A stretch of DNA of 64,000 nt, from positions 1,152,001 through 1,216,000 of the forward strand of contig OZ219787.1 of the NCBI GenBank assembly GCA_964291285.2. Reading direction: 5' to 3'. The number at the start of each line of letters is the position of its first letter. The first letter of the stretch is position 1. Positions 13,276 through 61,986 of the stretch are shown here, piece by piece. The DNA comes from Alphaproteobacteria bacterium (GTDB taxonomy: Bacteria > Pseudomonadota > Alphaproteobacteria > Bin95). The notes beneath the pieces were generated by a model that saw only the letters and a list, made by a program, of their open reading frames with translations, was not told where the DNA came from and ran no database searches. Both the position numbers and the translations under genes were made by a program.

Positions 13276-14700
13276 CTAGCCAGGCGCCCAAAAGGCGGTC
13301 GTGGAGGGGTCGCGAATTGCCGTGCGGCCAACCATGTAGCAATAGAAACTGGTGGGCGTGAAGTACAAGATCGAACCATCGCCCCAAGGCTCGATGCTGC
13401 CCTGTCGGGTGCGAGTGGTTGCAAGCAGGTGCGCGCTAGGGTGCCGCCTTGCAAATTCCCGAAGGCCTTTCAGCATTCCGGGATTTCTGAAATAGCGGTC
13501 CGACCACTTGACCTCGACGCACCAGTTCGGACTTTGTTGCCTATCGAGAAGCACGATATCCACTTCGCCATTCTGCCAGCGCGCATAGTGAAGGTTGAGG
13601 TCGGCATGGAACCATTGGGCAAAAACCGCGGTCTCCGCAATCGGGCCCATGGCCTCGTCTTCCGCCGTCACGGGGCCGAACAGTGCACAGCGCAAAGTGG
13701 GCGCGGTCACATAGACCTTGAAGGATGTCGTGCGCGTGAAGCGCCGGGCATTGCGGTCGATGCGGTGAACGATCCGGATCAGGAAGGCCGCCTCCAGATA
13801 TTCCAGATAGCGCCGGATAGTCGGCTTCGTAACACCGGAGCGCTGCGATAGCTCGTCGAGCGAGACCTCCTCGGCCGTGTTGAATACCAGGGTCATAAAG
13901 AGGGCATTCAATTCCTGCACGTTCTGAATGCCGTAAAGGCTCGGAAGATCGCGAAGGAGTACCTTGTCAACGATGTCGGCTCCGATATAGCGCGCGGGGT
14001 CGTCACGAATGGCGGGTGACGAAACGGCTTCCGGGAAGCCGCCGAAATTCACATAGTCGATAAAATGATTGTTCAACCCTTCCGGGTCGACAAGGCGGTA
14101 GGACGTATCGGTTACCGGTTCTACAAGCCCTGCGATGCCCTGAAGATCGAGAAATTCGTAGAAGGTAAGGGGAGGCAGCAGGAAGTCCGTGAAACGGCCC
14201 GCGCCCGATTCCATGCTCTTCAGGCGCAGCGCGGCGGCGGCCGACCCGGACACGACGCAGCGAATGCCGGGATGTGCGTCCACGAACGCCTTGAGGTGGC
14301 GTTCCCAGTCGGCCAGATACTGGATTTCGTCCAGGAAGAGCGCGCGGGGACCGTCGGCACTGCCGCTCGCCTCGCGGATTTCCCCGGCTATTTCCTCGAT
14401 GGAGAGCCGCGCATAAAGCGGCTGGTCGAGCGAGGCGTATCCGACGTCCCGGGGCGCGTAATCTGCTGCGGCGAGGAGGCGGTCGATGGCGTGGTGGATC
14501 AGGACGGTCTTGCCGACGCGCCTCGGCCCCATGAGAACCACGGCGCGGCGAACGCCCGTTTCTTCGACGAGTTCGGCGAAGCGCCGGAAATAGGCGCGCG
14601 GCTTCAGTCGGGCGTAGTCCTCCCGGATTCCGCCGCCGTCCCACCAGGGGTTGTCGGCTCTCAGGCGCTGATGCCGTTGGGTTGACGAAATCTCACGCAC
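13276..14700 (-). CDS. AAA+ ATPase (AAA_14 plus DUF4143-like, C-terminal PD-(D/E)XK-like)
   Basis: [20 protein letters not shown], wHTH, EVDIV...VEVKW. Confidence 0.88.
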
Positions 14701-15009: not shown

Positions 15010-15453
15010 TCATCGCGGCGGGGCTTCCGGCCGCGCCCGGCCGTCCGCCGCAGGGTCCTTCCGGCGGCCGGCGAGGCGCTGTTTGCGTTCGAGGCCGTGG
15101 CGTTTCAGGAAGCGCTGCACCGTCATCGCGCTGAACGCCGCTCCCTCGGCGGCGAGCGCATCGCGCAGCCCGTACATGGAAATCGCCGGCCGCGCCTCCA
15201 GGATGCGGAGGATCCGCTCCCGCTCGGCTTCGATCCGCCACGAGCGGCGGTCGCCGCCCTGCCTGTCGGCCCGGAGCTGTCCGCGCTCGCGGAACCGCCG
15301 CACCCACAGGGCGACGCTGTCCCCGCCCACGTCGTAAAGCCGGCCCGCGGCCCGGGCGCTCATGCCCTTCTCCACCACCGCCGCGACCGCCCGGCGGCGC
15401 AGGTCCTCGCCGACCGCCCGGCCCCGCCGCCGCTCCGCCAATATATCCGTCAC
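15010..15453 (-). CDS. Stand-alone IS630-OrfA-like double-HTH protein (copy 2), no DDE domain
   Basis: DLRRRAVAAV...SARAAGRLYDVG..SVALWVRRFRERG...ILEARPAISMYGLRDALAAEG...QRFLKRHGL; GTG start with GGAGGAG RBS. Confidence 0.75.
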   Translation of the reverse strand: MTDILAERRRGRAVGEDLRRRAVAAVVEKGMSARAAGRLYDVGGDSVALWVRRFRERGQLRADRQGGDRRSWRIEAERERILRILEARPAISMYGLRDALAAEGAAFSAMTVQRFLKRHGLERKQRLAGRRKDPAADGRARPEAPPR

Positions 15454-15595
15454 CGCTCCTCCCTTTCCGCTTCGCCGCCTTGCGGCAGGTTGATGGATAC
15501 TTGCGCCGTTTCCGCGCCGCCTGCATGTCCGTGATTACCCCTCAACTTCTCCGTCACGGCCCTCGCTTCCCCCTTGCAGCCTTGTATCGACTTGA

Positions 15596-16777
<1,182 letters not shown>

Positions 16778-16940
16778 CCGACAACACAGTCGCTCTCCCT
16801 GCGAGCGGCCGCCAGCCGGCCGCCGGGAGAGGCGCGTCTGTACAGGACGGGGAGCGATGCGCGGCGCCCGTGCAACCGCCGCTCCCCGTCTGTGCCGTCA
16901 GGTCATGGTCCCGTTCGCTCCCGCCGGATGCTTCTTTCTA

Positions 16941-16973
16941 GAATGAATATAGAACAAATGAAGTGCAATGCAA
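16941..16973 (-). promoter_or_regulatory. sigma70-like promoter with LexA box, facing HTH copy 2
   Basis: Minus strand TTGCAT-N16-TATATT; + strand GAAT-GAATATA-GAAC at 16941-16955. Confidence 0.62.
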
Positions 16974-17032
16974 CCCATTAGAGGAAAAAAAACTTAAATA
17001 GTGTTATTTCAAAGGCTTCGACGTTCGCCCCG

Positions 17033-18391
17033 CTACGACCGGGCCTGCGGTTCGGAGGCCCGCCCGGCGGCGAAGGCCAGTGCGAGGGTGGCCAGGACCG
17101 GGACGGCGGCGGAGCCGAGGAAGACGGCGGCGAAGGCGTAGAGGAATGTGCCGCCGACGGTGTTGAAGGCGAGCATCAGGCCGGTTGCGCCCAGCACCAC
17201 GCCGAGCGTGCGCGTCATCATCACCAGGCTGCCGGCCACGCCCCGGTCCGCCAGCGGCAGGCTGCCGCTCGCGACTTCCAGATAGGCGACCTGGAAGATG
17301 CCGAGGCCCGCGCCGTGCACCAGCAGCGCGACCACCACGAAGGCCATGCCCGGCTCCGCGCCCCAGAGGCCGATGCCGGCAAGCCCGCCAGCGACCGCAA
17401 GCGCGCCGGCCGCCGCAATCAGTCTGCCGTCGCGGCGCTGCGCCCAGCGTCCGGCCAGGGGTGACGCCAGCGCCATCCCGAGCGGCGAGAGGGCGAGCAG
17501 AGCGCCCGCGGTCAGCACGTCCAGCCCGGCCACGCGGTCGAGCCAGAAGGGTACCAGCAGCATAACCGCGAAGCCGACGAGATTGACCGCAATGTTGCTC
17601 GCCGCTGGAATGGAGAAGCCCGGCCGGCGGAAGGGGGCCAGGCGGATGATCGGTGATGGATGGCTGCGGAGCGCGAACCAGGCGCCGGCCCCGAACGCCG
17701 CCAGCAGCAGCGCGAAGCCGAACCAGCCGCCGCTTGCCGCCCGGTTGATGCCGAGCAGCAGGCAGCCAAGCGCGAGGACCAGCAGCGCAGCGCCCACCGC
17801 GTCGAAACGGGGCGCGCCTCCGCCTGCGGCGGCCGCGGGCGGCGCGCGGAACAGCAGCAGGGCGGCGAGTGCGATCGGGGCACGGAACCAGAACACGCCG
17901 GCCCAGCCCATCGCGTCCACCAGCAGGCCGCCCAGCGAGGGCCCGACCGCGCCGCCGAGCGCGAACAGCAGCGTGTAGGCGCCGAGCACCCGCGCGCGCG
18001 ACGACTCGGGGAAGTAGGCCGTCGCCAGTGCCGGGCCGACCGCGAGCACCATCGCCGTGCCGACGCCCTGGGCCACGCGGGCGGCGAGCAGGATTTCGAA
18101 AGCCGGCGCGAGCGCGCAGGCGACGAAGGCGGCGATGCTCCAGGCGAGCCCGATGCGGAACAGCCGTGCATGGCCGAACAGGTCGCCGAGGCGCCCGCAG
18201 ACCAGCATCAGGCTCGCATAGGTCAGCACGTAGCAGATGACGACCCACTGGATGTCGCCGAGTTCGATGCCGAGGCTGCGGACGATGTCGGGGAAGGCGA
18301 TGTTGACGGCCGTGTCGAGCGAGCCGATGGCCGTGCCCAGCCCCACGACGACGACGCCCGCCGCCGCCCGCCTGCCCGGACCGCTGCTCAT
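17033..18391 (-). CDS. MFS transporter (DHA2-like)
   Basis: GRLGDLFGHARLF motif A; many TM helices. Confidence 0.9.
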   Translation of the reverse strand: MSSGPGRRAAAGVVVVGLGTAIGSLDTAVNIAFPDIVRSLGIELGDIQWVVICYVLTYASLMLVCGRLGDLFGHARLFRIGLAWSIAAFVACALAPAFEILLAARVAQGVGTAMVLAVGPALATAYFPESSRARVLGAYTLLFALGGAVGPSLGGLLVDAMGWAGVFWFRAPIALAALLLFRAPPAAAAGGGAPRFDAVGAALLVLALGCLLLGINRAASGGWFGFALLLAAFGAGAWFALRSHPSPIIRLAPFRRPGFSIPAASNIAVNLVGFAVMLLVPFWLDRVAGLDVLTAGALLALSPLGMALASPLAGRWAQRRDGRLIAAAGALAVAGGLAGIGLWGAEPGMAFVVVALLVHGAGLGIFQVAYLEVASGSLPLADRGVAGSLVMMTRTLGVVLGATGLMLAFNTVGGTFLYAFAAVFLGSAAVPVLATLALAFAAGRASEPQARS

Positions 18392-18418
18392 CGCGCGGCG
18401 TTTCCCTCCGGACCCCGC

Positions 18419-19504
18419 CTACCGGAACTTCGGCATGATCTCTTCCGCGAACCGGCGGAAATTGCGCCGGTCCACGGCCTTGGGCGGCAGCAGCACGATC
18501 TCCCGGCAGCCGGCCGCTTCCATCGCCCGGATGCGCTCGACGATCAGGTCCGGCTCGCCGACCAGCCCGCCGGTCGCCTGCACCGTGGCGGGCGTGACGA
18601 AGCGGTGCTCCGCCTCGGGCAGGTAGGAGCAGTGGCCCAGATGGACGCGGAGGTGCATCCGGTCGTCCGGGATGCCGAGGTCCTTCAGGAAGCGGTTGTA
18701 GAGGTCCCAGTCGTCGCGGGCGTAGTCGGGGATGAACCCGTCATGGCCGACGATGCGGGCGTGCTCCCACCAGTAATGCAGCGTGGCGCCCACCTGCGCG
18801 CCGATCTCCTCGACGATATGCGGGTCGCTCACCTTCTCGCCCGGCTTCATGGCGCAGTAGAAGGTGAGCGTCGAGGCGTGGAAGTCCTCCGGCAGCGTGC
18901 GGTCCGCCTTCTCGGCCCCGGCCTTCACCCGGTCGAGATTGCGCGCCATGACGCCGAGCGGCTCGGCGCCCGCGCAGATGCGCCCGTCGCCGAGTTCGCC
19001 CGCGATCTCCAGCGCCCTGGGTCCATTGGCCGCGACATGGATCGGCACCGGCGGCTCGAAGCCGATGAAGCCCATCTCCCGGTTCTGGAAGCGGATGGGG
19101 CGCGTCAAGCCGTCATGCGTGAACGCAACCTCCTCGCCGTGCAGGAGGCCGCGCACCACGCGGAGATAATCGCGGAACGCAGCGGGCTTCATCGGGGGAT
19201 GGCCCATGATGCGCATGGCGGTGTGGCCGGTGCCGATGCCGAGAAAGGCGCGGCCGGGCGCAAGCCGGTTGATGGACGCGATCGAATGCGCTGTCACCGG
19301 CGCTAGGCGGGTGCCCGGTATCGCGACCCCGGTGCCGAGGCGGATGCGCGAGGTGTTGGCCGCCGCCAGCGCCAGCACCGCATAGCAGTCCGACCAGATC
19401 ATCTGGCTGTCCGGCGCCCAGCCGGAATCGTAGCCGAGCTCCTCGGCGAGCTGCAGCGTCTGCCACTCGTCGATCTTGGTGTTGACCATCGCGCCGAACT
19501 GCAT
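18419..19504 (-). CDS. LLM-class flavin-dependent oxidoreductase
   Basis: AEELGYDSGW, TSRIRLGTGV, GRAFLGIGTG, AANGPRALEIAGELGDG. Confidence 0.9.
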   Translation of the reverse strand: MQFGAMVNTKIDEWQTLQLAEELGYDSGWAPDSQMIWSDCYAVLALAAANTSRIRLGTGVAIPGTRLAPVTAHSIASINRLAPGRAFLGIGTGHTAMRIMGHPPMKPAAFRDYLRVVRGLLHGEEVAFTHDGLTRPIRFQNREMGFIGFEPPVPIHVAANGPRALEIAGELGDGRICAGAEPLGVMARNLDRVKAGAEKADRTLPEDFHASTLTFYCAMKPGEKVSDPHIVEEIGAQVGATLHYWWEHARIVGHDGFIPDYARDDWDLYNRFLKDLGIPDDRMHLRVHLGHCSYLPEAEHRFVTPATVQATGGLVGEPDLIVERIRAMEAAGCREIVLLPPKAVDRRNFRRFAEEIMPKFR

Positions 19505-19630
19505 GGGGGCGTTTCCTTCCATCGCAACGGCCCGGACTATAGCGCGCCGCCGCCGGCCGGCATTCCGGTTTGTCCGGGGCCTCTGTATCCTTGCACGGCG
19601 AACGGCTCCCGGAGGCGGAAGGACGGACCC

Positions 19631-20767
19631 ATGGCGATTGCCGAGCCCGCGTTCACTCTGGGCGTGGAGGAAGAGTATCTGCTGGTCGATGCGGAGACGG
19701 GCGCGCTTGCCTCCAACCCGCCGGAAAGCCTGATGGACGAGTGCGTAAGCGCGCTCGGCGAGCAGGTCACCAACGAGTTCCTCCAGGCCCAGGTCGAGAT
19801 CGGCACGAAGGTCTGCGGCGATATCGGCGAGGTGCGGGCGGAGCTGCGCCGGCTCAGGAGTGGCGTCGCGCGGGCCTGCGGCAATCACGGCCTCGCCCCG
19901 GTCGCGGCCTCCACGCACCCCTTCGGCGACTGGCGCCAGCAGGACTATGTCCACAAGGAGCGCTATGAGGGCCTCGCCCACGACATGCAGGCCGTGGCCT
20001 ACCGCATGCTCATCTGCGGCATGCACGTCCATGTCGGCATCGAGGACGAGGAGCTGCGCATCGACCTGATGAACCAGGCCCGGTACTTCCTGCCCCACAT
20101 GCTCTGCCTGACGACCTCCTCGCCCTTCTGGCAGGGGCGGGACACGGGGCTGGCGTCCTACCGGCTGACGGTCTTCGACGCCATGCCGCGCACCGGCCTG
20201 CCCGAGCCGCTGGCCAGCTGGAGCGAATACCAGCGCATGATCGAGCACATGACGAGCTCCGGCCTCTTGGAGGATGGCTCCAAGATCTGGTGGGACCTCC
20301 GCCCGAGCTCGCGCTTCTCGACCCTGGAGATGCGCATCTGCGACGTCTGCCCGGACATGGAGGACGCGCTCGCCGTCGCCGCGCTGTTCCAGTGCATCCT
20401 GCGCATGCTCTACCGCCTGCGGCTCGGCAACCAGCGCTGGCGTGACTATCCCAACATGCTGATCCAGGAGAACCGCTGGCTGGCGCAGCGCTATGGCAGC
20501 CGCAGCTGGCTGGTCGATTTCGGCAAGCGCGCGCTGGTGCCCTTCGCCGACCTCACGGACGAGCTTCTGGAGCTGGTGCGCGAGGACGCAGAGGCGCTCG
20601 GCTGCACGGCGGAGGTGGAGCGCGCCAGGCGGATCGCTGCCCGCGGCACCTCCGCCGAGCGCCAGCGCGCCGCCTGGGAAGCCGCCGGCGGCGGCGCCGA
20701 CAGCGACGCGGCGCTCCGCGCGGTCGTTCGAGAACTGGCGGCCGAGACGGTGAGCGGCCTTGACTGA
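19631..20767 (+). CDS. Carboxylate-amine ligase (YbdK / glutamate-cysteine ligase 2 family)
   Basis: TLGVEEEY, CGMHVHVG, SSPFWQG, WWDLRP, TLEMRICD. Confidence 0.92.
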   Translation: MAIAEPAFTLGVEEEYLLVDAETGALASNPPESLMDECVSALGEQVTNEFLQAQVEIGTKVCGDIGEVRAELRRLRSGVARACGNHGLAPVAASTHPFGDWRQQDYVHKERYEGLAHDMQAVAYRMLICGMHVHVGIEDEELRIDLMNQARYFLPHMLCLTTSSPFWQGRDTGLASYRLTVFDAMPRTGLPEPLASWSEYQRMIEHMTSSGLLEDGSKIWWDLRPSSRFSTLEMRICDVCPDMEDALAVAALFQCILRMLYRLRLGNQRWRDYPNMLIQENRWLAQRYGSRSWLVDFGKRALVPFADLTDELLELVREDAEALGCTAEVERARRIAARGTSAERQRAAWEAAGGGADSDAALRAVVRELAAETVSGLD

Positions 20768-20860
20768 ATAGTGGCCGGTGGCCAGTCGATAGTGGATAGG
20801 GTTCGGCCTGACCTGCTATTCACCAAACACCGACCACTAACCGCCGGAGCCCGGTCCCCC

Positions 20861-21904
20861 ATGCGCATCCTCGCCGGCCTCGTCCTCATCGCCCTTGCCG
20901 CCCTGCCCGTGCCCGCGCCCGCCGCCGATGCGGGGCCCGACCAGTATTGGCGCAAGGCCTGGCCCAACACGGATTTCAGCCGCCATTCGGTGCCGTTCGA
21001 GGAGATCGCGTCCGGCGGCGTCGCGCGCGACCAGATCCCGCCGATCGACGATCCCGTCTTCACCTCCGTTGCGGAGGCGGAGAAGCTGATCGCGCCGACC
21101 GAGCCGGTGATTTCGCTGACGGTGGACGGCGAGCGCCGCGCCTATCCGCTCGCGATCCTGATCTGGCACGAGATCGTGAACGACACCATCGCCGGCAGGC
21201 CCGTGGCGGTGACTTATTGCCCGCTCTGCGATGCGGCGCTGGTGTTCGACCGGCGGGTCGCGGGCCGGGTGCTCGATTTCGGCACGACGGGGCTGCTGCG
21301 CTTCTCGGACCTCGTGATGTGGGACCGGCAGACGGAAAGCTGGTGGCAGCAGTTCCTGGGCGAGGCGATGGTGGGGGAGCTGACGGGCGAGCGGCTCACC
21401 ATGCTGCCCTCGCGCGTCGAGAGCTTCGCGCGCTTCGCCGCCGCCGCGCCGGACGGAACGGTGCTGATGCCGAACGACCCGAACATGCGCAGCTACGGCT
21501 CCAACCCCTATGCCGGCTATGACGGCGCGCACTGGCCCTTCCTCTTCCGGGGCGCCTATCCGCTGGCGGCGGTGCCGCCGCTGGCGCGCGTCGCCATGGT
21601 CGGCAAGCGGGCCTGGACGGTGGACCTGCTGAAGGAGAAGAAGCGCATCGAGGCGGGCGACCTCGTGCTGGAATGGGCGCCCGGCCAGAACTCGGCGCTC
21701 GACAAGGGGGTGATCCGCGAGGGCCGCGACATCGGCAATGTCACCGTGCAGCGCCGCGCCGCCGCCGGCGGGCTGGTCGATGCGGTCCACGACGTGACCT
21801 TCGCCTTCGCCTTCCTCGCCTTCGTGCCGGACGGCGTCATCCACACCATCTGCGGCCCGTATGTGAAGCCGGAAACCCTGCCGGAGAACCTCGCCTGCGG
21901 GTAG
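20861..21904 (+). CDS. Exported DUF3179-like protein
   Basis: Signal peptide; GGVARDQIPPIDDP, WHEIVND, TYCPLC, DRQTESWWQQ. Confidence 0.85.
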   Translation: MRILAGLVLIALAALPVPAPAADAGPDQYWRKAWPNTDFSRHSVPFEEIASGGVARDQIPPIDDPVFTSVAEAEKLIAPTEPVISLTVDGERRAYPLAILIWHEIVNDTIAGRPVAVTYCPLCDAALVFDRRVAGRVLDFGTTGLLRFSDLVMWDRQTESWWQQFLGEAMVGELTGERLTMLPSRVESFARFAAAAPDGTVLMPNDPNMRSYGSNPYAGYDGAHWPFLFRGAYPLAAVPPLARVAMVGKRAWTVDLLKEKKRIEAGDLVLEWAPGQNSALDKGVIREGRDIGNVTVQRRAAAGGLVDAVHDVTFAFAFLAFVPDGVIHTICGPYVKPETLPENLACG

Positions 21905-21945
21905 GGGCCGGTGGGGCAGGCGGGGCGAGGGATCTACCGAGCCGC

Positions 21946-21977
21946 TTGACAGCTACCTGTTTGTTCCCTATATATTC
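21946..21977 (+). promoter_or_regulatory. sigma70 promoter with LexA box, facing HTH copy 3
   Basis: TTGACA-N17-TATATA; GTTC-CCTATAT-ATTC (21963-21977) overlaps the -10. Confidence 0.72.
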
Positions 21978-22158
21978 CGTTTGACGAAGAAAACGGACCC
22001 ATCGGAGCCATGACCTGAACCAAGGGCGGCGGCCGCACGAGGCCGCATTGCGCCCCAGCGAATTCGGACCCGCAATGCCGGCGGCGCAGGCCGGGCGGCA
22101 AGCGGGAGGGGTGCGGCCGCCATGCAGGCCCTGGGGGGACGAAACGGCAGCAAATTGC

Positions 22159-22245
22159 GGTCAACCTGAGCCGAAAAAGGCCGTTTGTGGTGGTCGACCT
22201 GAGCCGAAAAGGGCCGTTTGTGGCGGTCAACCTGAGCCGAAAAGG
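22159..22245 (+). repeat. 33-bp tandem repeat, ~2.6 copies
   Basis: GGTC(A/G)ACCTGAGCCGAAAA at 22159, 22192 and 22225. Confidence 0.9.
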
Positions 22246-22255
22246 AGAAGAGACG

Positions 22256-22693
22256 ATGACGAACGAAGTGGCGGACGGAACGGCGGGCGCGCCGGCGGCG
22301 GTCCTGCCGGTGCCGAGACAGGGCCGGGCGGTGAACGAGCAACTGCGGGGCCTGGTGCTGGCGGCCGTGCTGCATGAGGGCCTGACCGGCGGCGCGGCAG
22401 CGCGGCGGTTCGGGCTGGGCCGGGCGACGGTCAACCGGTGGGTGCGGCAGTTTCGCGAGACCGGCCAGGTGCGGGCCGGCGGGCAGGGGGGCAGCACCGC
22501 GCGGCTGGAGCGTTCGCGGGGGCTGATCCTCCGCATCCTGGTCGCGCGGCCGGACATTTCCATGTACGGATTGTGCGACATGCTCGCCGCCGAGGGGGTG
22601 AAAGCCAATCCGTTCACGCTGCAGCGCTTCCTGAAACGCCACGGCCTGGACCGCAAGAGCCGCCGCGCCCGGCGGCGGGGGAGCGGGGGCTAA
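22256..22693 (+). CDS. Stand-alone IS630-OrfA-like double-HTH protein (copy 3), no DDE domain
   Basis: AAARRFGLGRATVNRWVRQFRETG...ILVARPDISMYGLCDMLAAEG...QRFLKRHGL; AGGAG RBS. Confidence 0.75.
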   Translation: MTNEVADGTAGAPAAVLPVPRQGRAVNEQLRGLVLAAVLHEGLTGGAAARRFGLGRATVNRWVRQFRETGQVRAGGQGGSTARLERSRGLILRILVARPDISMYGLCDMLAAEGVKANPFTLQRFLKRHGLDRKSRRARRRGSGG

Positions 22694-22729
22694 CGGCGGG
22701 CGCTTGCGCCGGGGCCGCGGGCCGGGCGG

Positions 22730-22981
22730 CTAACAGGCCCGGTTGCGCAGTTCGCGGTCGGAGACGGTATCGCCGGCGTCCAGGGCGCGGCGTCCTTCCT
22801 CAAGGGCGTAGCGGCCCCCGCCGCTCAGCGGCTCGTCGGCCTCGGGGGCGAGGGAGAGCGCTCGAACGAACGGGTGCCCGGACCCGGACAGGAATTCGAG
22901 ATAACGCTCGGCGACCGGGAGTTCGCTGGCAGGAAGCGCGTCCACCAGCTGATGCAGTCGCTCCCCAGGCTCGGCTTCCAT
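22730..22981 (-). CDS. Orphan antitoxin-like small protein
   Basis: ERLHQLVDALPASEL...YLEFL...APEADEPLS...ALEEGRRALDAGDTVS; no adjacent toxin seen. Confidence 0.55.
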   Translation of the reverse strand: MEAEPGERLHQLVDALPASELPVAERYLEFLSGSGHPFVRALSLAPEADEPLSGGGRYALEEGRRALDAGDTVSDRELRNRAC

Positions 22982-23144: not shown

Positions 23145-24245
23145 GTGGATGGAGGGGGAAATCCGCTGGCCGGCATCCGGGAGGAGCTTGCCGACGAATA
23201 TGCGCAGCCGACAGCGATGCCACAGCGCAGCGCACGCGCTCCGACCGCAGGGTGTCTATTCAGCGGCATGGGGGGATTTGCCTCCGGGCTGGTCGCCTCC
23301 GGCTTCACCGTCTCGTGGGCTTCCGACAACAATGCCGACGCGTGCGCCGCGTTCTCTCATCGCCATCCGGGCGTCCGCATCCTTCAATGTGATGTACAAG
23401 ATTTGCGAGCCGACGCTGACGGCCTTGCCCCAGTAGACGTCTTGGCCGCTGGCTTTCCGTGCCAAAGCTTCTCTCAGGCTGGCGGACGAAAGGGGTTTGA
23501 CGACGACCGAGGTAAAGCCTTTTTCGAAATACCCCGTCTACTCAGCGAGCTTGCGCCACAACATCGACCGAAGTTTTTGATTCTAGAGAATGTAGAGTAT
23601 ATCCTCTACGGCAATGATGGGCGCTGGTTTGATACCATCCAGCGCGAACTCCGCCGGGTCGGCTATTGGTTTCGCCGTCAATCCTGCTGGCAAGTCAATG
23701 TCAAGGATGCAACGGCTATTCCGCAGGACCGCTCTCGCGTCTTTATGGTTGCGGCTTCTCGCGAACACTATAGTCACAATCCGTTCAAACCTCCAATCAT
23801 TCAGGTAAATAGAGCAGCGACAGATGTAAACATATTCTTGGATCGTTCAAAAAGAGCGAATGACGATGATTATTTGCCAAAAGATAACAAATATTGTAAA
23901 ATGATAGAAACTAAAATACTGGAAGGAGAATCTTCTGAAAATTTATATCAATTGAGGCGATCTTATGTTCGAGAAAAAAGAGGGAAACAGTGCCCTACAT
24001 TAACGGCGAATATGGGAATTGGTGGCCATAATGTGCCATTCATCAAGGACTCGTGGGGTATTCGTCGCCTTACTGTAGAAGAAATTGCCCGGCTTCAAGG
24101 TTTTGATACTTCGGTTTCACTCTTTCCAGACTTAACGTCGCAGGCACAATATAGGTTGTTAGGAAATGCTGTCTGCCCAGAGCTTGCCCGTCTAGCAGCC
24201 AAAGAATGCTTTCCACACTTGACACTGGATGAGGAAATATCGTGA
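23145..24245 (+). CDS. DNA (cytosine-5)-methyltransferase
   Basis: Motifs LFSGMGG, GFPCQSFS, LENV, QDRSRVF, RRLT..EIARLQGF, LGNAV. Confidence 0.95.
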   Translation: MDGGGNPLAGIREELADEYAQPTAMPQRSARAPTAGCLFSGMGGFASGLVASGFTVSWASDNNADACAAFSHRHPGVRILQCDVQDLRADADGLAPVDVLAAGFPCQSFSQAGGRKGFDDDRGKAFFEIPRLLSELAPQHRPKFLILENVEYILYGNDGRWFDTIQRELRRVGYWFRRQSCWQVNVKDATAIPQDRSRVFMVAASREHYSHNPFKPPIIQVNRAATDVNIFLDRSKRANDDDYLPKDNKYCKMIETKILEGESSENLYQLRRSYVREKRGKQCPTLTANMGIGGHNVPFIKDSWGIRRLTVEEIARLQGFDTSVSLFPDLTSQAQYRLLGNAVCPELARLAAKECFPHLTLDEEIS

Positions 24246-26185
24246 CAAGAATCGGATGGAAATTTCCCCCCACGGGTGGCGGAGTGGAAGGTGGTTACAA
24301 TCATGCCGGCATGACTCACTTCCAAGGTGCTAGATATCCAAGTCTGGCACGGGAAGTGATCCAAAATTCCCTTGATGCACGCAAATCCGAAGCCCGCCCC
24401 GTTCATGTGACTTTCGAGATTCAACAGCTTCTACGGGATCAGATGCCCGGCTATGAGGAGTTTCTGGATATAATTAATCGTTGTATTGAAGCATCTGACA
24501 ATGACGAAAGGGCACGATCTGAATTGGAATTAGAGAAGAAAGTAGTGCAGCGTAAAAAAATCATTTTTCTACGTATAGTGGATAGAGAAACAACAGGACT
24601 TAGTGGTAGTAAGTGGGCAGCGCTGTTGAAGAAGGAGGGATTGCCGGATAAAGAAAGTGCTACTGCGGGTGGCAGCTTCGGTATAGGAAAGAACGCTCCT
24701 TTTGCGATGTCACCATTGAGGACGGTGTATTACTGGTCTCGGTTTGAAGCGGGCTCGGAAGTGTTGGAGAAATTTCAGGGTAAGGCTATACTGATTTCGC
24801 ATCTAGATGATGATAAGGAGGATACACAGAGTATCGGGTTCTTTGGCAGTAAGGACAAATGCTTGGAACTTTCAGATGCACAAATCCCAGAAGCAATTCG
24901 TATGATAGAAACTCCGGACAGGGGAATAGGAACTTCTCTTTGGATACCGGGATTCGATGGGTCGGCAATTTGGAGAGATAAGATTGCCGGGAGTGTAGTG
25001 GAAAATTTCTTTTGTGCTGTTGACGAAGCGAAACTCGAGGTCTTGGTTGATTCAGATTCTTATACGACGACTGATCTTCTTTCTATTGAAGCAGCGAGCT
25101 TGGGAGATTGGTTTGAACATCTTGTTAACAATGAAGCCCATTCCGAGGACAATCTTCGTTTGAGGCGGGCGAGGGCATTTTGGGAAGTTATGAAGGCGCC
25201 GATGGTTATAAAAGAGAAAGAGGATAAGGATTTGGGCCATTGCAAGTTATGGATAACGGTGAGTGATAAATACGAAGATGTTGGACGTGTTGGATTAATT
25301 CGATTGAATGGGATGTTGATAACCGATCAGCAGGAGGGGTTACGGCAGTTTCGACGCACGATGCCGTTCGCGGCAGTATGTCGATTCGAGTCCGACAAGG
25401 GTAACGAGTTGCTTCGTGGGATGGAGAATCCGAGGCACGATCAGTTTCAGCCGGAATTTTTGCCGACGGAGGATCGCAGCCGCGGACGGGCAGCGCTCAC
25501 GCGGATTACGAGATGGATTCGGGAGGAGATCAACAAGGTAGCGATGCCAGAGGTAAGTGGTGAAGCGATTGCTATTACGGAACTCGCCAGGCTGCTCCCA
25601 GACCTCGAACCAGATGACGGTCTTGGCGCGGTGCCCAGCGAGGACGGAGAGCGACCGCTCGAAGGCGCGCCCCTTATTCAGCTAAAGCCAATTCGGCCGC
25701 CGCGTCAAAGGCAGGAGGTGCCGGACGACGGCGTGGTCGAGGGAGGCCAGGAGGAAGGCGACGACGAGAACGGCGGGACGGTAGGCGGCGGAGGGGGGAG
25801 TGACAATGGTGACGGTGGCGGAGAAACGGGGAGTGGGACAGAGACGCTTGTTTTCGGTCCTGTCCAAATTGAGAACAGTAGATGTTTGCCGTCGCCCGAG
25901 GATAAGAAACGGTTGCAAGTCCTGTTTACCCCTAAATCCCGCGGGACCGGCGCGTCTCTGTCGCTTGTAGAGGCGGGTGATTCGGATTTTATCCAAAGAA
26001 ATGATCTCCAAGTGGTAAAGCCGAACGGGGAAAGAGTAAAACTGTCGGAATTTCACCTCGAATTCATAGCCAATGAACGAGTGAGTATTTTGATCGAGGG
26101 CGACGAACCTGTTGCACAGCGTGCATGGCGGATCATGGTGAAGCAACCCAAGGAGCATAAGCCGGCCGCAGAGGGACAGAAATAA
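24242..26185 (+). CDS. GHKL (Hsp90/MORC-like) ATPase-domain protein
   Basis: AREVIQNSLDA, DRETTGL, GGSFGIGK; acidic/Gly-rich linker before a beta-rich C-terminus; overlaps the MTase stop. Confidence 0.75.
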   Translation: MTRIGWKFPPTGGGVEGGYNHAGMTHFQGARYPSLAREVIQNSLDARKSEARPVHVTFEIQQLLRDQMPGYEEFLDIINRCIEASDNDERARSELELEKKVVQRKKIIFLRIVDRETTGLSGSKWAALLKKEGLPDKESATAGGSFGIGKNAPFAMSPLRTVYYWSRFEAGSEVLEKFQGKAILISHLDDDKEDTQSIGFFGSKDKCLELSDAQIPEAIRMIETPDRGIGTSLWIPGFDGSAIWRDKIAGSVVENFFCAVDEAKLEVLVDSDSYTTTDLLSIEAASLGDWFEHLVNNEAHSEDNLRLRRARAFWEVMKAPMVIKEKEDKDLGHCKLWITVSDKYEDVGRVGLIRLNGMLITDQQEGLRQFRRTMPFAAVCRFESDKGNELLRGMENPRHDQFQPEFLPTEDRSRGRAALTRITRWIREEINKVAMPEVSGEAIAITELARLLPDLEPDDGLGAVPSEDGERPLEGAPLIQLKPIRPPRQRQEVPDDGVVEGGQEEGDDENGGTVGGGGGSDNGDGGGETGSGTETLVFGPVQIENSRCLPSPEDKKRLQVLFTPKSRGTGASLSLVEAGDSDFIQRNDLQVVKPNGERVKLSEFHLEFIANERVSILIEGDEPVAQRAWRIMVKQPKEHKPAAEGQK

Positions 26186-27036
26186 TGAGATACGATCCGA
26201 ACAAGATGTGGCAATACCCGGTTCTGAGACCGGAAAGCGACGATTATCCAACTTCCGAATTTCAAGCGACCATTGATCCTCAAAGAATGGAAAATTCCAC
26301 AGCGCTTCGAGTGACAGTGGATTTCGCTCTCGGTGATGCAAATTTGTCCAAGCTCATCGAAGATCGATTCGCGCAATACATAATACTCACTCGATGCTCT
26401 AAAACATATTTTCGACAAATGAATTCAACTAATTCTGGGCGATTGATATTCGATATTGCTGGTGACAGGATTTACGGTGAAATTGAAATTTCTCCTTACA
26501 TAATGGCAGTAGATGAAATATCGGAATTTCGCGCCAATAGCTGGCATGAAGATTATGATTTGCTGCCAACACCGCACCTTGAACCTGGTTCCGTTCTCGC
26601 TCTTGACACTCCAAGGCACTACTATATTGACAATGCAGAGGAGCAATCGGTTAATTCGATTATTGAAGTGCAACCGGGCAATCCTGAAAATGGCAGATGG
26701 GATTGCGATTTCGAGGGGGAGAGAGTCAAAATCACTATGTCGAATGAAGATTATGAAAAATTTCGTCGTGCTCGTCAAGAAAATTTAAGCGAGGAAGAAA
26801 AGGCATAGATATTGAATTCGATTTACTTTCCGGCTGTTTACCACATATTGGTCACAACGGACTCGGAAAAAAGTGTTTATGTGGAAAGACGCTGGTATCG
26901 CGCACTCGATAAACGTCTTGAGGAGATAAACGGAGGAACTTTGGGCCAAGACGGTAGAAATAGACTGGAAGATGCGCAACGCTTGTTGGAAAACCCCTTT
27001 TCTCGATTACCTTTTATAGCTGCGGATGCGCTATAA
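26185..27036 (+). pseudogene. Hypothetical protein split by an in-frame TAG (26806-26808)
   Basis: ORFs 26185-26808 and 26812-27036 are in the same frame: EEEKA*ILNSIYFPAV; TAATG coupling at both ends. Confidence 0.7.
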
Positions 27037-61590: not shown

Positions 61591-61829
61591 ATGGTGGGCG
61601 TCTTGCTCATCGATCCTCCTTGATCCTTTCCACTCCTCCCGCCGCCGTCCTGCTTGCGGCGGGTCCCTGTTTCGCGCGTATCGCGTACGGGCGCGGGCGC
61701 GTGTCGGCGCCGGCGCGGTTCGCGCGCCTGATTGCGCGCGCGAGGCGGCGGACGCACTTCGCCCGTCGGTTCCGCACCGGATTTTCGAAACTGGGGAAAG
61801 CGGCCCCGGAAGCCCCTTCCCTCGATGAC

Positions 61830-61857
61830 AGATTACCATACTTTATCTCGATGTCAA
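61830..61857 (-). promoter_or_regulatory. sigma70-like promoter pointing toward the yejF 3' end
   Basis: Minus strand TTGACA-N16-TAATCT with TG extension, preceded by an A-tract. Confidence 0.55.
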
Positions 61858-61986
61858 ATTTTTTTGGGGAAAAATATCCACAATATTGAACAAATCAGGC
61901 TATCGATCTGTGGAAAACCATCCATGAGGGCGTCCGGCTTTCGGAGTATGCGGCCTCAGCCACTGCGGCCGCCGTGCGTGTAGCCG

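Follow-up and report, generated by a model that had tools for sequence, protein, structure and literature searches.

A conserved, probably cis-regulatory leader with a two- to four-codon open reading frame precedes an expanded family of paired-type helix-turn-helix genes in an uncultured alphaproteobacterial genus

To our knowledge, only a few isolated examples of functional two-codon minigenes, in which a start codon and one sense codon are followed directly by a stop, have been described. Translation of the two-codon minigene in the LEE1 leader of enterohaemorrhagic Escherichia coli is described as raising ler expression in cis, a misplaced copy being inhibitory (PMC3262186), while the axe-txe minigene mg2, ATGactTAA, which also encodes Met-Thr, is proposed to shield the mRNA against an endonuclease (PMC8708949); lambda bar minigenes are mentioned in the same two sources. 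As presented there, minigene translation in LEE1 and axe-txe acts in cis on the downstream gene, and the distance to that gene matters. Here we analyse a 64,000-nt window of the genome of an Alphaproteobacteria bacterium (assembly GCA_964291285.2, contig OZ219787.1, positions 1,152,001 to 1,216,000) in which two related genes for helix-turn-helix (HTH) proteins, HTH2 and HTH3, are preceded by homologous non-coding leaders, leader 2 and leader 3, each with a mini open reading frame (mini-ORF) ATG ACC TGA. Like the described minigenes (PMC3262186, PMC8708949), the mini-ORF consists of a start, one sense codon and a stop, has a purine tract on its 5' side and lies in the long leader of a regulator gene. 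It differs in lying 97–433 nt 5' of the gene, against 15–124 nt in the known cases, in being followed by GC hairpins, in its UGA stop (mostly UGA-C), in having three- and four-codon forms and in recurring in more than 100 paralogous leaders. We favour, at a probability of roughly 0.6, the reading that the blocks shared by these leaders are parts of a cis-regulatory leader that would combine a promoter gated by a LexA-type box (in a large part of the family), a cis-acting Met-Thr minigene, a further conserved block termed B4 and autoregulatory repeats.

The first-pass annotation had listed six short non-coding blocks in the same order in both leaders and had read them as a putative non-coding or cis-regulatory RNA. 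Read directly from the sequence, all six lie exactly where they had been placed, on the plus strand in leader 3 and on the minus strand in leader 2: CCATGACCTGA (22008-22018; 16908-16898), which has only these two exact copies in the window; a GC hairpin, here called H1 (22024-22055; 16890-16846); GAGGGGT, which lies within B4 (22106-12; 15543-37); CATGCAGGC (22121-29; 15527-19); GAAACGGC(A)GCAA (22141-53; 15512-01); and TCAACCTG (22161-68; 15493-86). The span 21978..22255 that had been assigned to them does contain the blocks, but the conserved unit starts upstream of it, at a -35 box at 21946; likewise the order is shared in leader 2, but the leader there is not continuous, as an IS110-family element lies between the second and third blocks, which puts 1.3 kb between blocks 1-2 and blocks 3-6. 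Local alignment shows the leaders to be homologous: their promoter-proximal halves score 27, against 15.6 +/- 2.5 for dinucleotide shuffles, and their start-proximal halves 28, against 17.6 +/- 2.6, each score being reached by 1 of 500 shuffles. Divergence is not uniform across the leader but leaves islands, the invariant columns of the leader alignments A3 and A4 falling on ATGACCTG, on an arm of a second hairpin, H2, and on B4. G+C-rich intergenic DNA pairs and matches readily, and a lone short block such as GAGGGGT would be unremarkable; against scores of this kind in each half, and with the same block order recurring in well over 100 leaders, we regard the idea that the similarity is a chance by-product of base composition as already refuted, with next to no probability left to it.

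HTH2 and HTH3 are two members of a large family. A tblastn search found 44 paralogous loci of a paired-type HTH protein of about 140 aa in the 6.1-Mb genome, 43 of them with an assignable start, and a module of promoter and CCATGACCTGA stands 5' of 31 of these 43; the corresponding module of promoter and mini-ORF stands 5' of 86 of 100 copies sampled from congeners. A covariance model of the leader core, R1, matches 14 places in the genome, each of which is the upstream region of a listed HTH paralogue, and has matches in 9 of 16 congeners and in none of 14 genomes from other genera. In 5'-to-3' order, the aligned leaders consist of cTTGAC-N16/17-(C)TATAT(A); after about 35 nt, a purine tract with ATGACCTGA; H1, which begins 4–9 nt past the mini-ORF stop; the sole A/U-containing stretch, GATTTCGAAGG (in leader 3, GAATTCGGA); H2; B4, which reads AAC(A/G)GG-purines-NTGCG(C/T/G)(C/G)CG; a variable part, often with tandem repeats; and finally the Shine-Dalgarno sequence and start codon. 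Block 1 is thus the mini-ORF and block 2 is H1, while the leader 3 copies of GAAACGGC..GCAA and TCAACCTG sit in the first, degenerate unit of a tandem repeat of 3 x 33 nt.

The 12 own copies that do not have the module at the expected place fall into four groups. HTH2 has its own module, displaced by the insertion sequence (IS); L018 carries an insertion of the same IS and L025 is truncated at its 5' end; a small sub-family (L015, L042) has another leader, and its closest paralogue, L026, has no recognisable one; and the six most divergent paralogues (L003, L007, L009, L031, L035 and L036; 33-46% identity) have short leaders. These six carry boxes of the GTTC/ATTC/GTGC-N7-GTTC type no more than about 60 nt before the start codon, positioned as if the genes were directly under LexA control.

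The mini-ORF, which had been picked out as a minimal upstream reading frame, proves to be the most conserved feature of the leader. In leader 3 it occupies 22010-22018 (Met-Thr-stop) within a segment, 22004..22018 (+), that opens with GGAG and CC, and in leader 2 CC and ATG ACC TGA lie at 16898..16908 (-). We pooled 116 leaders, 31 of them own and 85 from relatives (one further relative, without 80 nt of upstream sequence, was dropped). A frame of two to four codons is kept in 115 of them: 77 have two codons, 5 have three and 33 have four, the one outlier having 66. The frame closes with TGA in 114 leaders and with TAG in one; the base that follows TGA is most often C (82), less often A (18), T (8) or G (6), and the start is ATG, or GTG in two. 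Variants include ATGACTTGA, which is synonymous, ATGATCTGA, ATGACCTGGTGA, ATGA(C/T)CTGGA(C/T)CTGA, ATGACGTGGA(A/C)(G/A)TGA, ATGACCTGGCGGTGA and ATGACCTGGGTATAG, and length changes are only ever of +3 or +6 nt. In 83 leaders the median distance from the first GTTC of the promoter region to the ATG is 47 nt, with an interquartile range of 45-48. Such in-frame length changes together with a tight promoter spacing fit a translated minigene, and from them we infer that the frame may be translated and may act on the mRNA that follows.

Upstream of the mini-ORF, leader 3 has a promoter-like element at 21946..21974 (+), with TTGACA (21946-51), a 17-nt spacer and TATATA (21969-74); the same -35/-10 arrangement is aligned in the 31 own leaders and visible in 86 of the 100 relatives. 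Leader 2 has TTGCAT-N16-TATATT at 16941..16973 (-). The core promoter is overlapped in both leaders by a box that resembles a LexA site, and related boxes stand at the lexA and recA genes of the same genome. In leader 3 this is the direct repeat GTTCCCTATATATTC (GTTC-N7-ATTC; 21963..21977, +), which overlaps the -10 and is one of only two GTTC-N7-RTTC sites in the window, and in leader 2 it is GTTCTATATTCATTC, at 16955-16941. The lexA promoter region carries GTTCTATATTGGTTC, identical to the box of the paralogue L033, while the recA box has the form GTTC-N7-ATTC found in both window leaders. The genome holds 20 GTTC-N7-GTTC sites with an A/T-rich spacer, 10 of which lie in HTH leaders and one at lexA. 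The boxes resemble the alphaproteobacterial LexA operator, for which GTTCN7GTTC is the motif published for Caulobacter (PMC12700426), in their direct-repeat-like layout, the A/T-rich 7-nt spacer and the overlap with the -10, the lexA box itself being that of one paralogue, and the leader would probably be SOS-gated.

Between the mini-ORF and B4 the leaders contain two hairpins, the first of which the first-pass annotation had listed. In leader 3, H1 (22024..22055, +) folds as had been claimed, with an outer stem GGGCG/CGCCC, an inner stem GCGGCC/GGCCGC and the loop GCACGA (minimum free energy (MFE) -23.5 kcal/mol, z -0.94), and the helix is predicted on A3; it is followed by the A/U-containing stretch AGCGAATTCGGACCC (22057..22071, +), which the alignments place as the counterpart of GATTTCGAAGG in other leaders, and by H2 (22076..22100, +), formed by TGCCGGCGGC, the loop gcag and GCCGGGCGGCA, which is helix 3 of A3, with 10 pairs and 95.6% of cells paired. 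A small hairpin, CCGTTT-N8-AAACGG (21977..21996, +), can also be read 5' of the mini-ORF. Leader 2 has an H1 that is readable from the sequence (16846..16890, -), with the outer stem CGGGGAGCG/CGCTCCCCG, and its congeneric counterparts at L047 and L050 fold alike; its H2, GGCGGCC-N7-GGCCGCT, lies together with the 5' half of B4, CGCAGGGAGAG, at 16793..16824 (-).

A rival reading is that a discrete structured RNA, be it a riboswitch-like sensor, a ribozyme or a small RNA, lies between the promoter and the HTH gene, the islands of identity being its conserved loops and junctions. Several observations are consistent with this. The structure-bearing model R1 finds the leaders of 75 of the 100 relatives, as opposed to 25 of 100 for a sequence-only model, R2, built from the same seed, and in the R1 alignment the share of paired cells is 89.2% (67.3% for shuffles, 27-44% for slid controls), with 16 of 17 pairs changing on both sides, a count reached by 2 of 500 shuffles. 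Sub-families with different hairpin sequences have H1 and H2 in equivalent positions, H1 of L108, L097 and L086, which belong to the sub-family of leader 3, shows a series of A-U, G-U and G-C, and on A3, which comprises 16 leaders, 95.1% of cells pair against 91.3% when shuffled (0 of 500 shuffles reach this), with only 4 pairs changing on both sides (49 of 500). G-U pairs are frequent in H1 and H2 and place the helices on the sense strand, which also folds better than its reverse complement (mean MFE -67.2 versus -62.2 kcal/mol), so that any structure would lie in the RNA.

The R1 alignment was, however, itself fitted to the structure, and the covariation seen there is not borne out by the robust measures on the R2 alignment: pairing reaches 77.5% against 74.3% in shuffles (1 of 500 reach it), but both-side changes number 7 against 5.9 (159 of 500) and pair types 23 against 21.3 (142 of 500), and the RNAalifold covariation terms are just -1.03 and -0.58 kcal/mol. 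The mean MFE z score of the 160-nt core, from 92 of the 115 eligible leaders, is -0.46 (reverse complement -0.19), and 20 windows taken after the mini-ORF range from -2.2 to +1.2, with five below -1, three above +1 and one at exactly +1.00. No Rfam 15 family reaches its gathering threshold in the window, and searches of 20 leaders and of window positions 15400-22400 at E values up to 5 gave only low-scoring unrelated matches, so that the leader, which shares a long conserved 5' region with hairpins with the cis-regulatory and leader RNAs of Rfam, belongs to none of these families at gathering score; a guanidine-III-like riboswitch, also considered, likewise has no Rfam match. There is no sense-strand terminator that would end a short RNA, and the region from H1 to B4 varies in length and hairpin number among sub-families. 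The pairing of CAGG with CCTG that had been thought possible in both leaders never changes on both sides and is broken where B4 reads CCGG or CTGG (4 of the 16 leaders in A3). A long-range pairing of CAUGACCUG with B4, repeatedly proposed by RNAalifold, is unsupported as well: its sides are almost invariant, with no both-side change, it is broken in the same CCGG and CTGG leaders, and duplex folding of such GC-rich segments is uninformative. Local sense-strand hairpins are therefore plausible, but a discrete structured non-coding RNA is not established, and we consider this weakly supported reading of the leader unlikely.

Block B4, which in leader 3 is AAGCGGGAGGGGTGCGGCCGCC (22100..22121, +, from the alignments), is also the place at which leader 2 is split. 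The IS110-family element there extends over 15669..16792 (+; ends uncertain by about 2 nt) and carries a transposase ORF (15746-16777, +) with matches to DEDD_Tnp_IS110 (E 4.5e-24) and Transposase_20 (E 5.3e-20). It has 13 matches in the genome, all at 100% identity, of which 9 are full length with both ends in view. GGAGAG directly precedes the left end in 13 of 13, and the right end is followed by GT in 9 of the 9 in view and by GTG in 7 of them, flanks that place the insertion inside B4. The junction in leader 2 recurs at other copies of the element, and two of the 13 matches lie in HTH leaders, 247 and 161 nt from an HTH start (HTH2 and L018). A B4-like 20-mer, GAGCCGACRGGAGAGGTGYG, occurs 28 times in the genome with up to two mismatches, against none for a reversed control, and the sites looked at lie in leaders of other genes, among them a small ORF (L167) and a gene whose product has a Terminase_2 N-terminus (L176); B4 is therefore a wider cis element.

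A leader of a second type lies in the window at 61611-61870 (-), before a small ORF that starts at 61610; it comprises TTGACA..., a GGGAAGGGGCTTCCGGGGCCGCTTTCCCC hairpin, the B4-like CCGACGGGCGAAGTGCGTCCGCC and GCGCGCAATCAGGCGCGCGAACC, the B4-like block being at 61769-61747 (-), and the same design, from which the 20-mer counted above derives, precedes L167 and the Terminase_2-like L176. The part of leader 2 proximal to its gene, 15454..15668 (-), opens with the 3' half of B4 (GTGCGTCCGCC); behind it come a further B4-like copy, blocks 3-6 and the Shine-Dalgarno sequence. Just past the IS, at 15570-15668 (-), there is a second H2/B4 segment, with a 33-nt direct repeat (15633-15665 and 16793-16825, 85% identical), and a second operator-like unit, GGCGTGAAATCCGTTCAAGTCG..., that resembles GGCGCAAGTATCCATCAACCTG...; leader 2 has thus been internally duplicated. 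We also considered B4 as the start of a second upstream ORF and rejected this: of 95 cases its NTG is GTG in 63, CTG in 16, TTG in 9 and ATG in 7, the frames relative to the HTH start divide 38:29:28, and the resulting ORFs range from 13 to several hundred codons.

The variable part before the start codon contains the last of the proposed elements. Leader 3 has three tandem 33-nt direct repeats with GAAACGGCAGCAA and TCAACCTG at 22142..22243 (+; score 42, z 38.6, 0 of 40 shuffles), which are candidate operator sites and the strongest case in the family. We compared the best ungapped direct repeat in the 170 nt preceding the start with 40 shuffles; it outscored every shuffle in 35 of 142 leaders and in 2 of 43 coding controls, with periods clustering at 27-28 and 33-35 nt. 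The repeat units differ between paralogues, for which reason we take them as putative operators of the cognate paired-domain protein.

These proteins are transposase-derived. HTH3 (22256-22693, +; 145 aa, GGAG Shine-Dalgarno at 22244-47) has a paired-type HTH and an IS630-like N-terminus, and HTH2 (15010..15453, -) is a protein of 147 aa with a GTG start. Their Pfam matches are to helix-turn-helix families only, and both align to the first 120 or so positions of the NCBIfam IS630 transposase model with scores below its cut-off, while a profile built from 33 paralogues matches the PAI and RED subdomains of the Sleeping Beauty transposase and Pax paired domains. No DDE domain is present in HTH2 or HTH3 or in the ORFs that follow either gene, and among 131 downstream ORFs a pair of IS630-type HTH and DDE_3 was found only at L026, where it is a separate element. 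Identity between paralogues is roughly 33-70%. Of 30 related genomes examined, 14 of the 16 congeners contain the family (E <= 1e-10; 2-39 matches per genome), and neither of two other genera of the same family does; two of 12 other families of the class have 1-3 weak matches only. A single-protein search for related loci returned 18, all from uncultured alphaproteobacterial metagenome-assembled genomes, and public records name the proteins merely 'helix-turn-helix domain-containing protein' or 'transposase'. By sequence comparison the HTH proteins are thus a genus-restricted and hugely expanded PAI+RED (Tc1/IS630-like) DNA-binding family without a catalytic domain. They share the paired-type HTH profile with transposase derivatives that consist of a DNA-binding domain only (IS630/Tc1-mariner PAI+RED; Pax), but differ from them in having no DDE domain, inverted repeats or programmed-frameshift partner ORF, and in an expansion to 2-44 copies confined to one genus.

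A further question is whether the leader is conserved as DNA, either as what is left of a mobile or recombining element or as a site on which one acts. A transposase would then once have bound the repeats, at an IS630/Tc1-like end, B4 would be a place of recombination or a target, and the HTH protein would be a domesticated or inhibitor form of the transposase. The IS630/Tc1-type DNA-binding domain agrees with this, as does the presence, beside an HTH gene, of tandem repeats of about 30 nt, which resemble the inverted-repeat/direct-repeat (IR/DR) sites bound in Tc1-like elements; all 13 IS110 matches, including the two in HTH leaders, are inserted precisely at B4, and B4 recurs across the genome as given above; and the loci form a multi-copy family, often beside foreign-looking cargo. 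Yet terminal inverted repeats were found at none of the 43 loci. No inverted repeat longer than 19 nt joins the 5' and 3' flanks, and a blastn-short comparison of 550 nt upstream with 730 nt downstream gave minus-strand matches of 13-19 nt at 8 of the 43, six of which are of 13-14 nt, while the 18-19-nt matches at L010 belong to a genome-wide repeat of the repetitive extragenic palindromic (REP) type; the leaders are therefore not IS630 ends, a possibility the first-pass annotation had named. REP-like repeats are all that the 3' flanks have in common, and no ends of an element are discernible. The missing DDE domain also speaks against a mobile element, and paralogues that are far from near-identical make recent transposition unlikely. 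Moreover, the conserved unit begins at a promoter and contains an ORF-like block whose spacing is fixed; it is strand-specific, with G-U pairs. A purely DNA-level explanation is in our judgement improbable.

We therefore return to the cis-regulatory leader and set out how it might work. A leader of about 200-330 nt would drive and tune HTH expression in cis. Transcription would start from a strong promoter, TTGACA-N16/17-TATAT, whose -10 is overlapped by the LexA-type box (GTTC-N7-GTTC, or -ATTC in both window copies), and could thereby be held off until DNA is damaged. Some 35-40 nt into the transcript the purine tract and the mini-ORF of 2-4 codons, usually ending in UGA-C, would load and release ribosomes, and this translation would act in cis on the following mRNA, as in the leaders of LEE1 and axe-txe. 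Such translation might shield the lone A/U-rich stretch that lies between H1 and H2, or lay it open, or it might refold the hairpins themselves. B4, a purine run followed by NTGCGnnCG, would contribute a sequence element common to the leaders of other gene families, and the paralogue-specific repeats before the start codon would be candidate sites for binding by the cognate HTH protein, which would thereby regulate its own gene.

A number of observations weigh against this proposal. The exact GTTC-N7-GTTC box, the form of the LexA operator, is present in only 26 of 116 leaders, and both window copies, with ATTC as second half-site, depart from it by one mismatch; allowing the first base of one half to differ raises the count to 46 of 116, 83 of 116 have any GTTC, and two whole sub-families (S1 and type B) have none, so that SOS control is possible for only part of the family. 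A scan for promoters of the E. coli type calls none in either leader; leader 3 goes uncalled because its TATATA ends in A rather than T. Alphaproteobacterial -10 boxes read CTATAT. As for the mini-ORF, the purine tract, which is always present, mostly leaves only 2-3 nt to the ATG, a short distance for a Shine-Dalgarno sequence. The second codon is nearly fixed as ACC or ATC, and most of the four-codon variants have the appearance of a 6-nt duplication (GAYCTG-GAYCTG-A), which would retain the TGA in any case. What is conserved in this block may therefore be a nucleotide motif as much as a reading frame. Hairpin energies are no better than those of shuffles, and H1 cannot be cast as an intrinsic terminator, since the terminator scan found no sense-strand GC hairpin with a U tract in the leader proper; the two calls made on the minus strand close to leader 2 fall at the IS110 junction, their tails being IS sequence. 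Finally, three quarters of the leaders, including leader 2, show no significant proximal repeat in the ungapped test.

The genes that follow the HTH paralogues were surveyed by a Pfam scan of all same-strand ORFs, GC3 (third-codon-position G+C) filtering having missed known genes, and the failure of many downstream genes at that filter suggests foreign DNA. HTH3 is followed (23145-26808, +) by a C5 DNA methylase and by the PADLOC candidates PDC-M33A and PDC-M33B, and downstream of HTH2 (13276-14700, -) lies an ATPase of the PDC-S01 (AAA_14/DUF4143) type. Elsewhere in the family the genes that follow encode further methylases, an MmeI-like enzyme, a PIN protein or transposases, or are ordinary metabolic genes. 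Just 3' of HTH3, a 69-nt stretch at about 22720-22790 (+) has 87% identity to one that lies 332-400 nt past the stop of L018. The genome is also rich in identical repeats that are unrelated to the leader: a context of about 150 nt around CATGACCTGG recurs dozens of times, and several other IS-like contexts are also repeated.

Taken at its fullest, the system would be a genus-wide array of 20-45 transposase-derived paired-domain proteins, each with its own operator repeats but all under one leader design, in which a LexA-type box is joined to a Met-Thr-UGA minigene that reads the status of ribosomes or of release factor 2 (RF2), many of them placed before restriction- or defence-type cargo, with B4 common to other gene families and an RNA-guided IS110 element landing on it; this we put forward as a speculation with rather long odds against it. 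The single ingredients are of known kinds, while their combination, the copy number and the restriction to one uncultured genus are new, and literature searches with the motif letters and for IS630, LexA and HTH paralogues returned nothing relevant on such a leader.

The more than 100 natural, diverged copies of one minigene design constitute a ready comparative data set, which displays the constraints on the start, the ACC or ATC second codon, the UGA-C stop, the promoter spacing and the restriction to in-frame length changes. The leader is at the same time a natural multi-copy target for an IS110-family element and would thus help in the study of how these recombinases choose their targets. 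Should the LexA box prove real, dozens of paralogous DNA-binding proteins, several of which precede methylase and defence-candidate genes, would be turned on together upon DNA damage.

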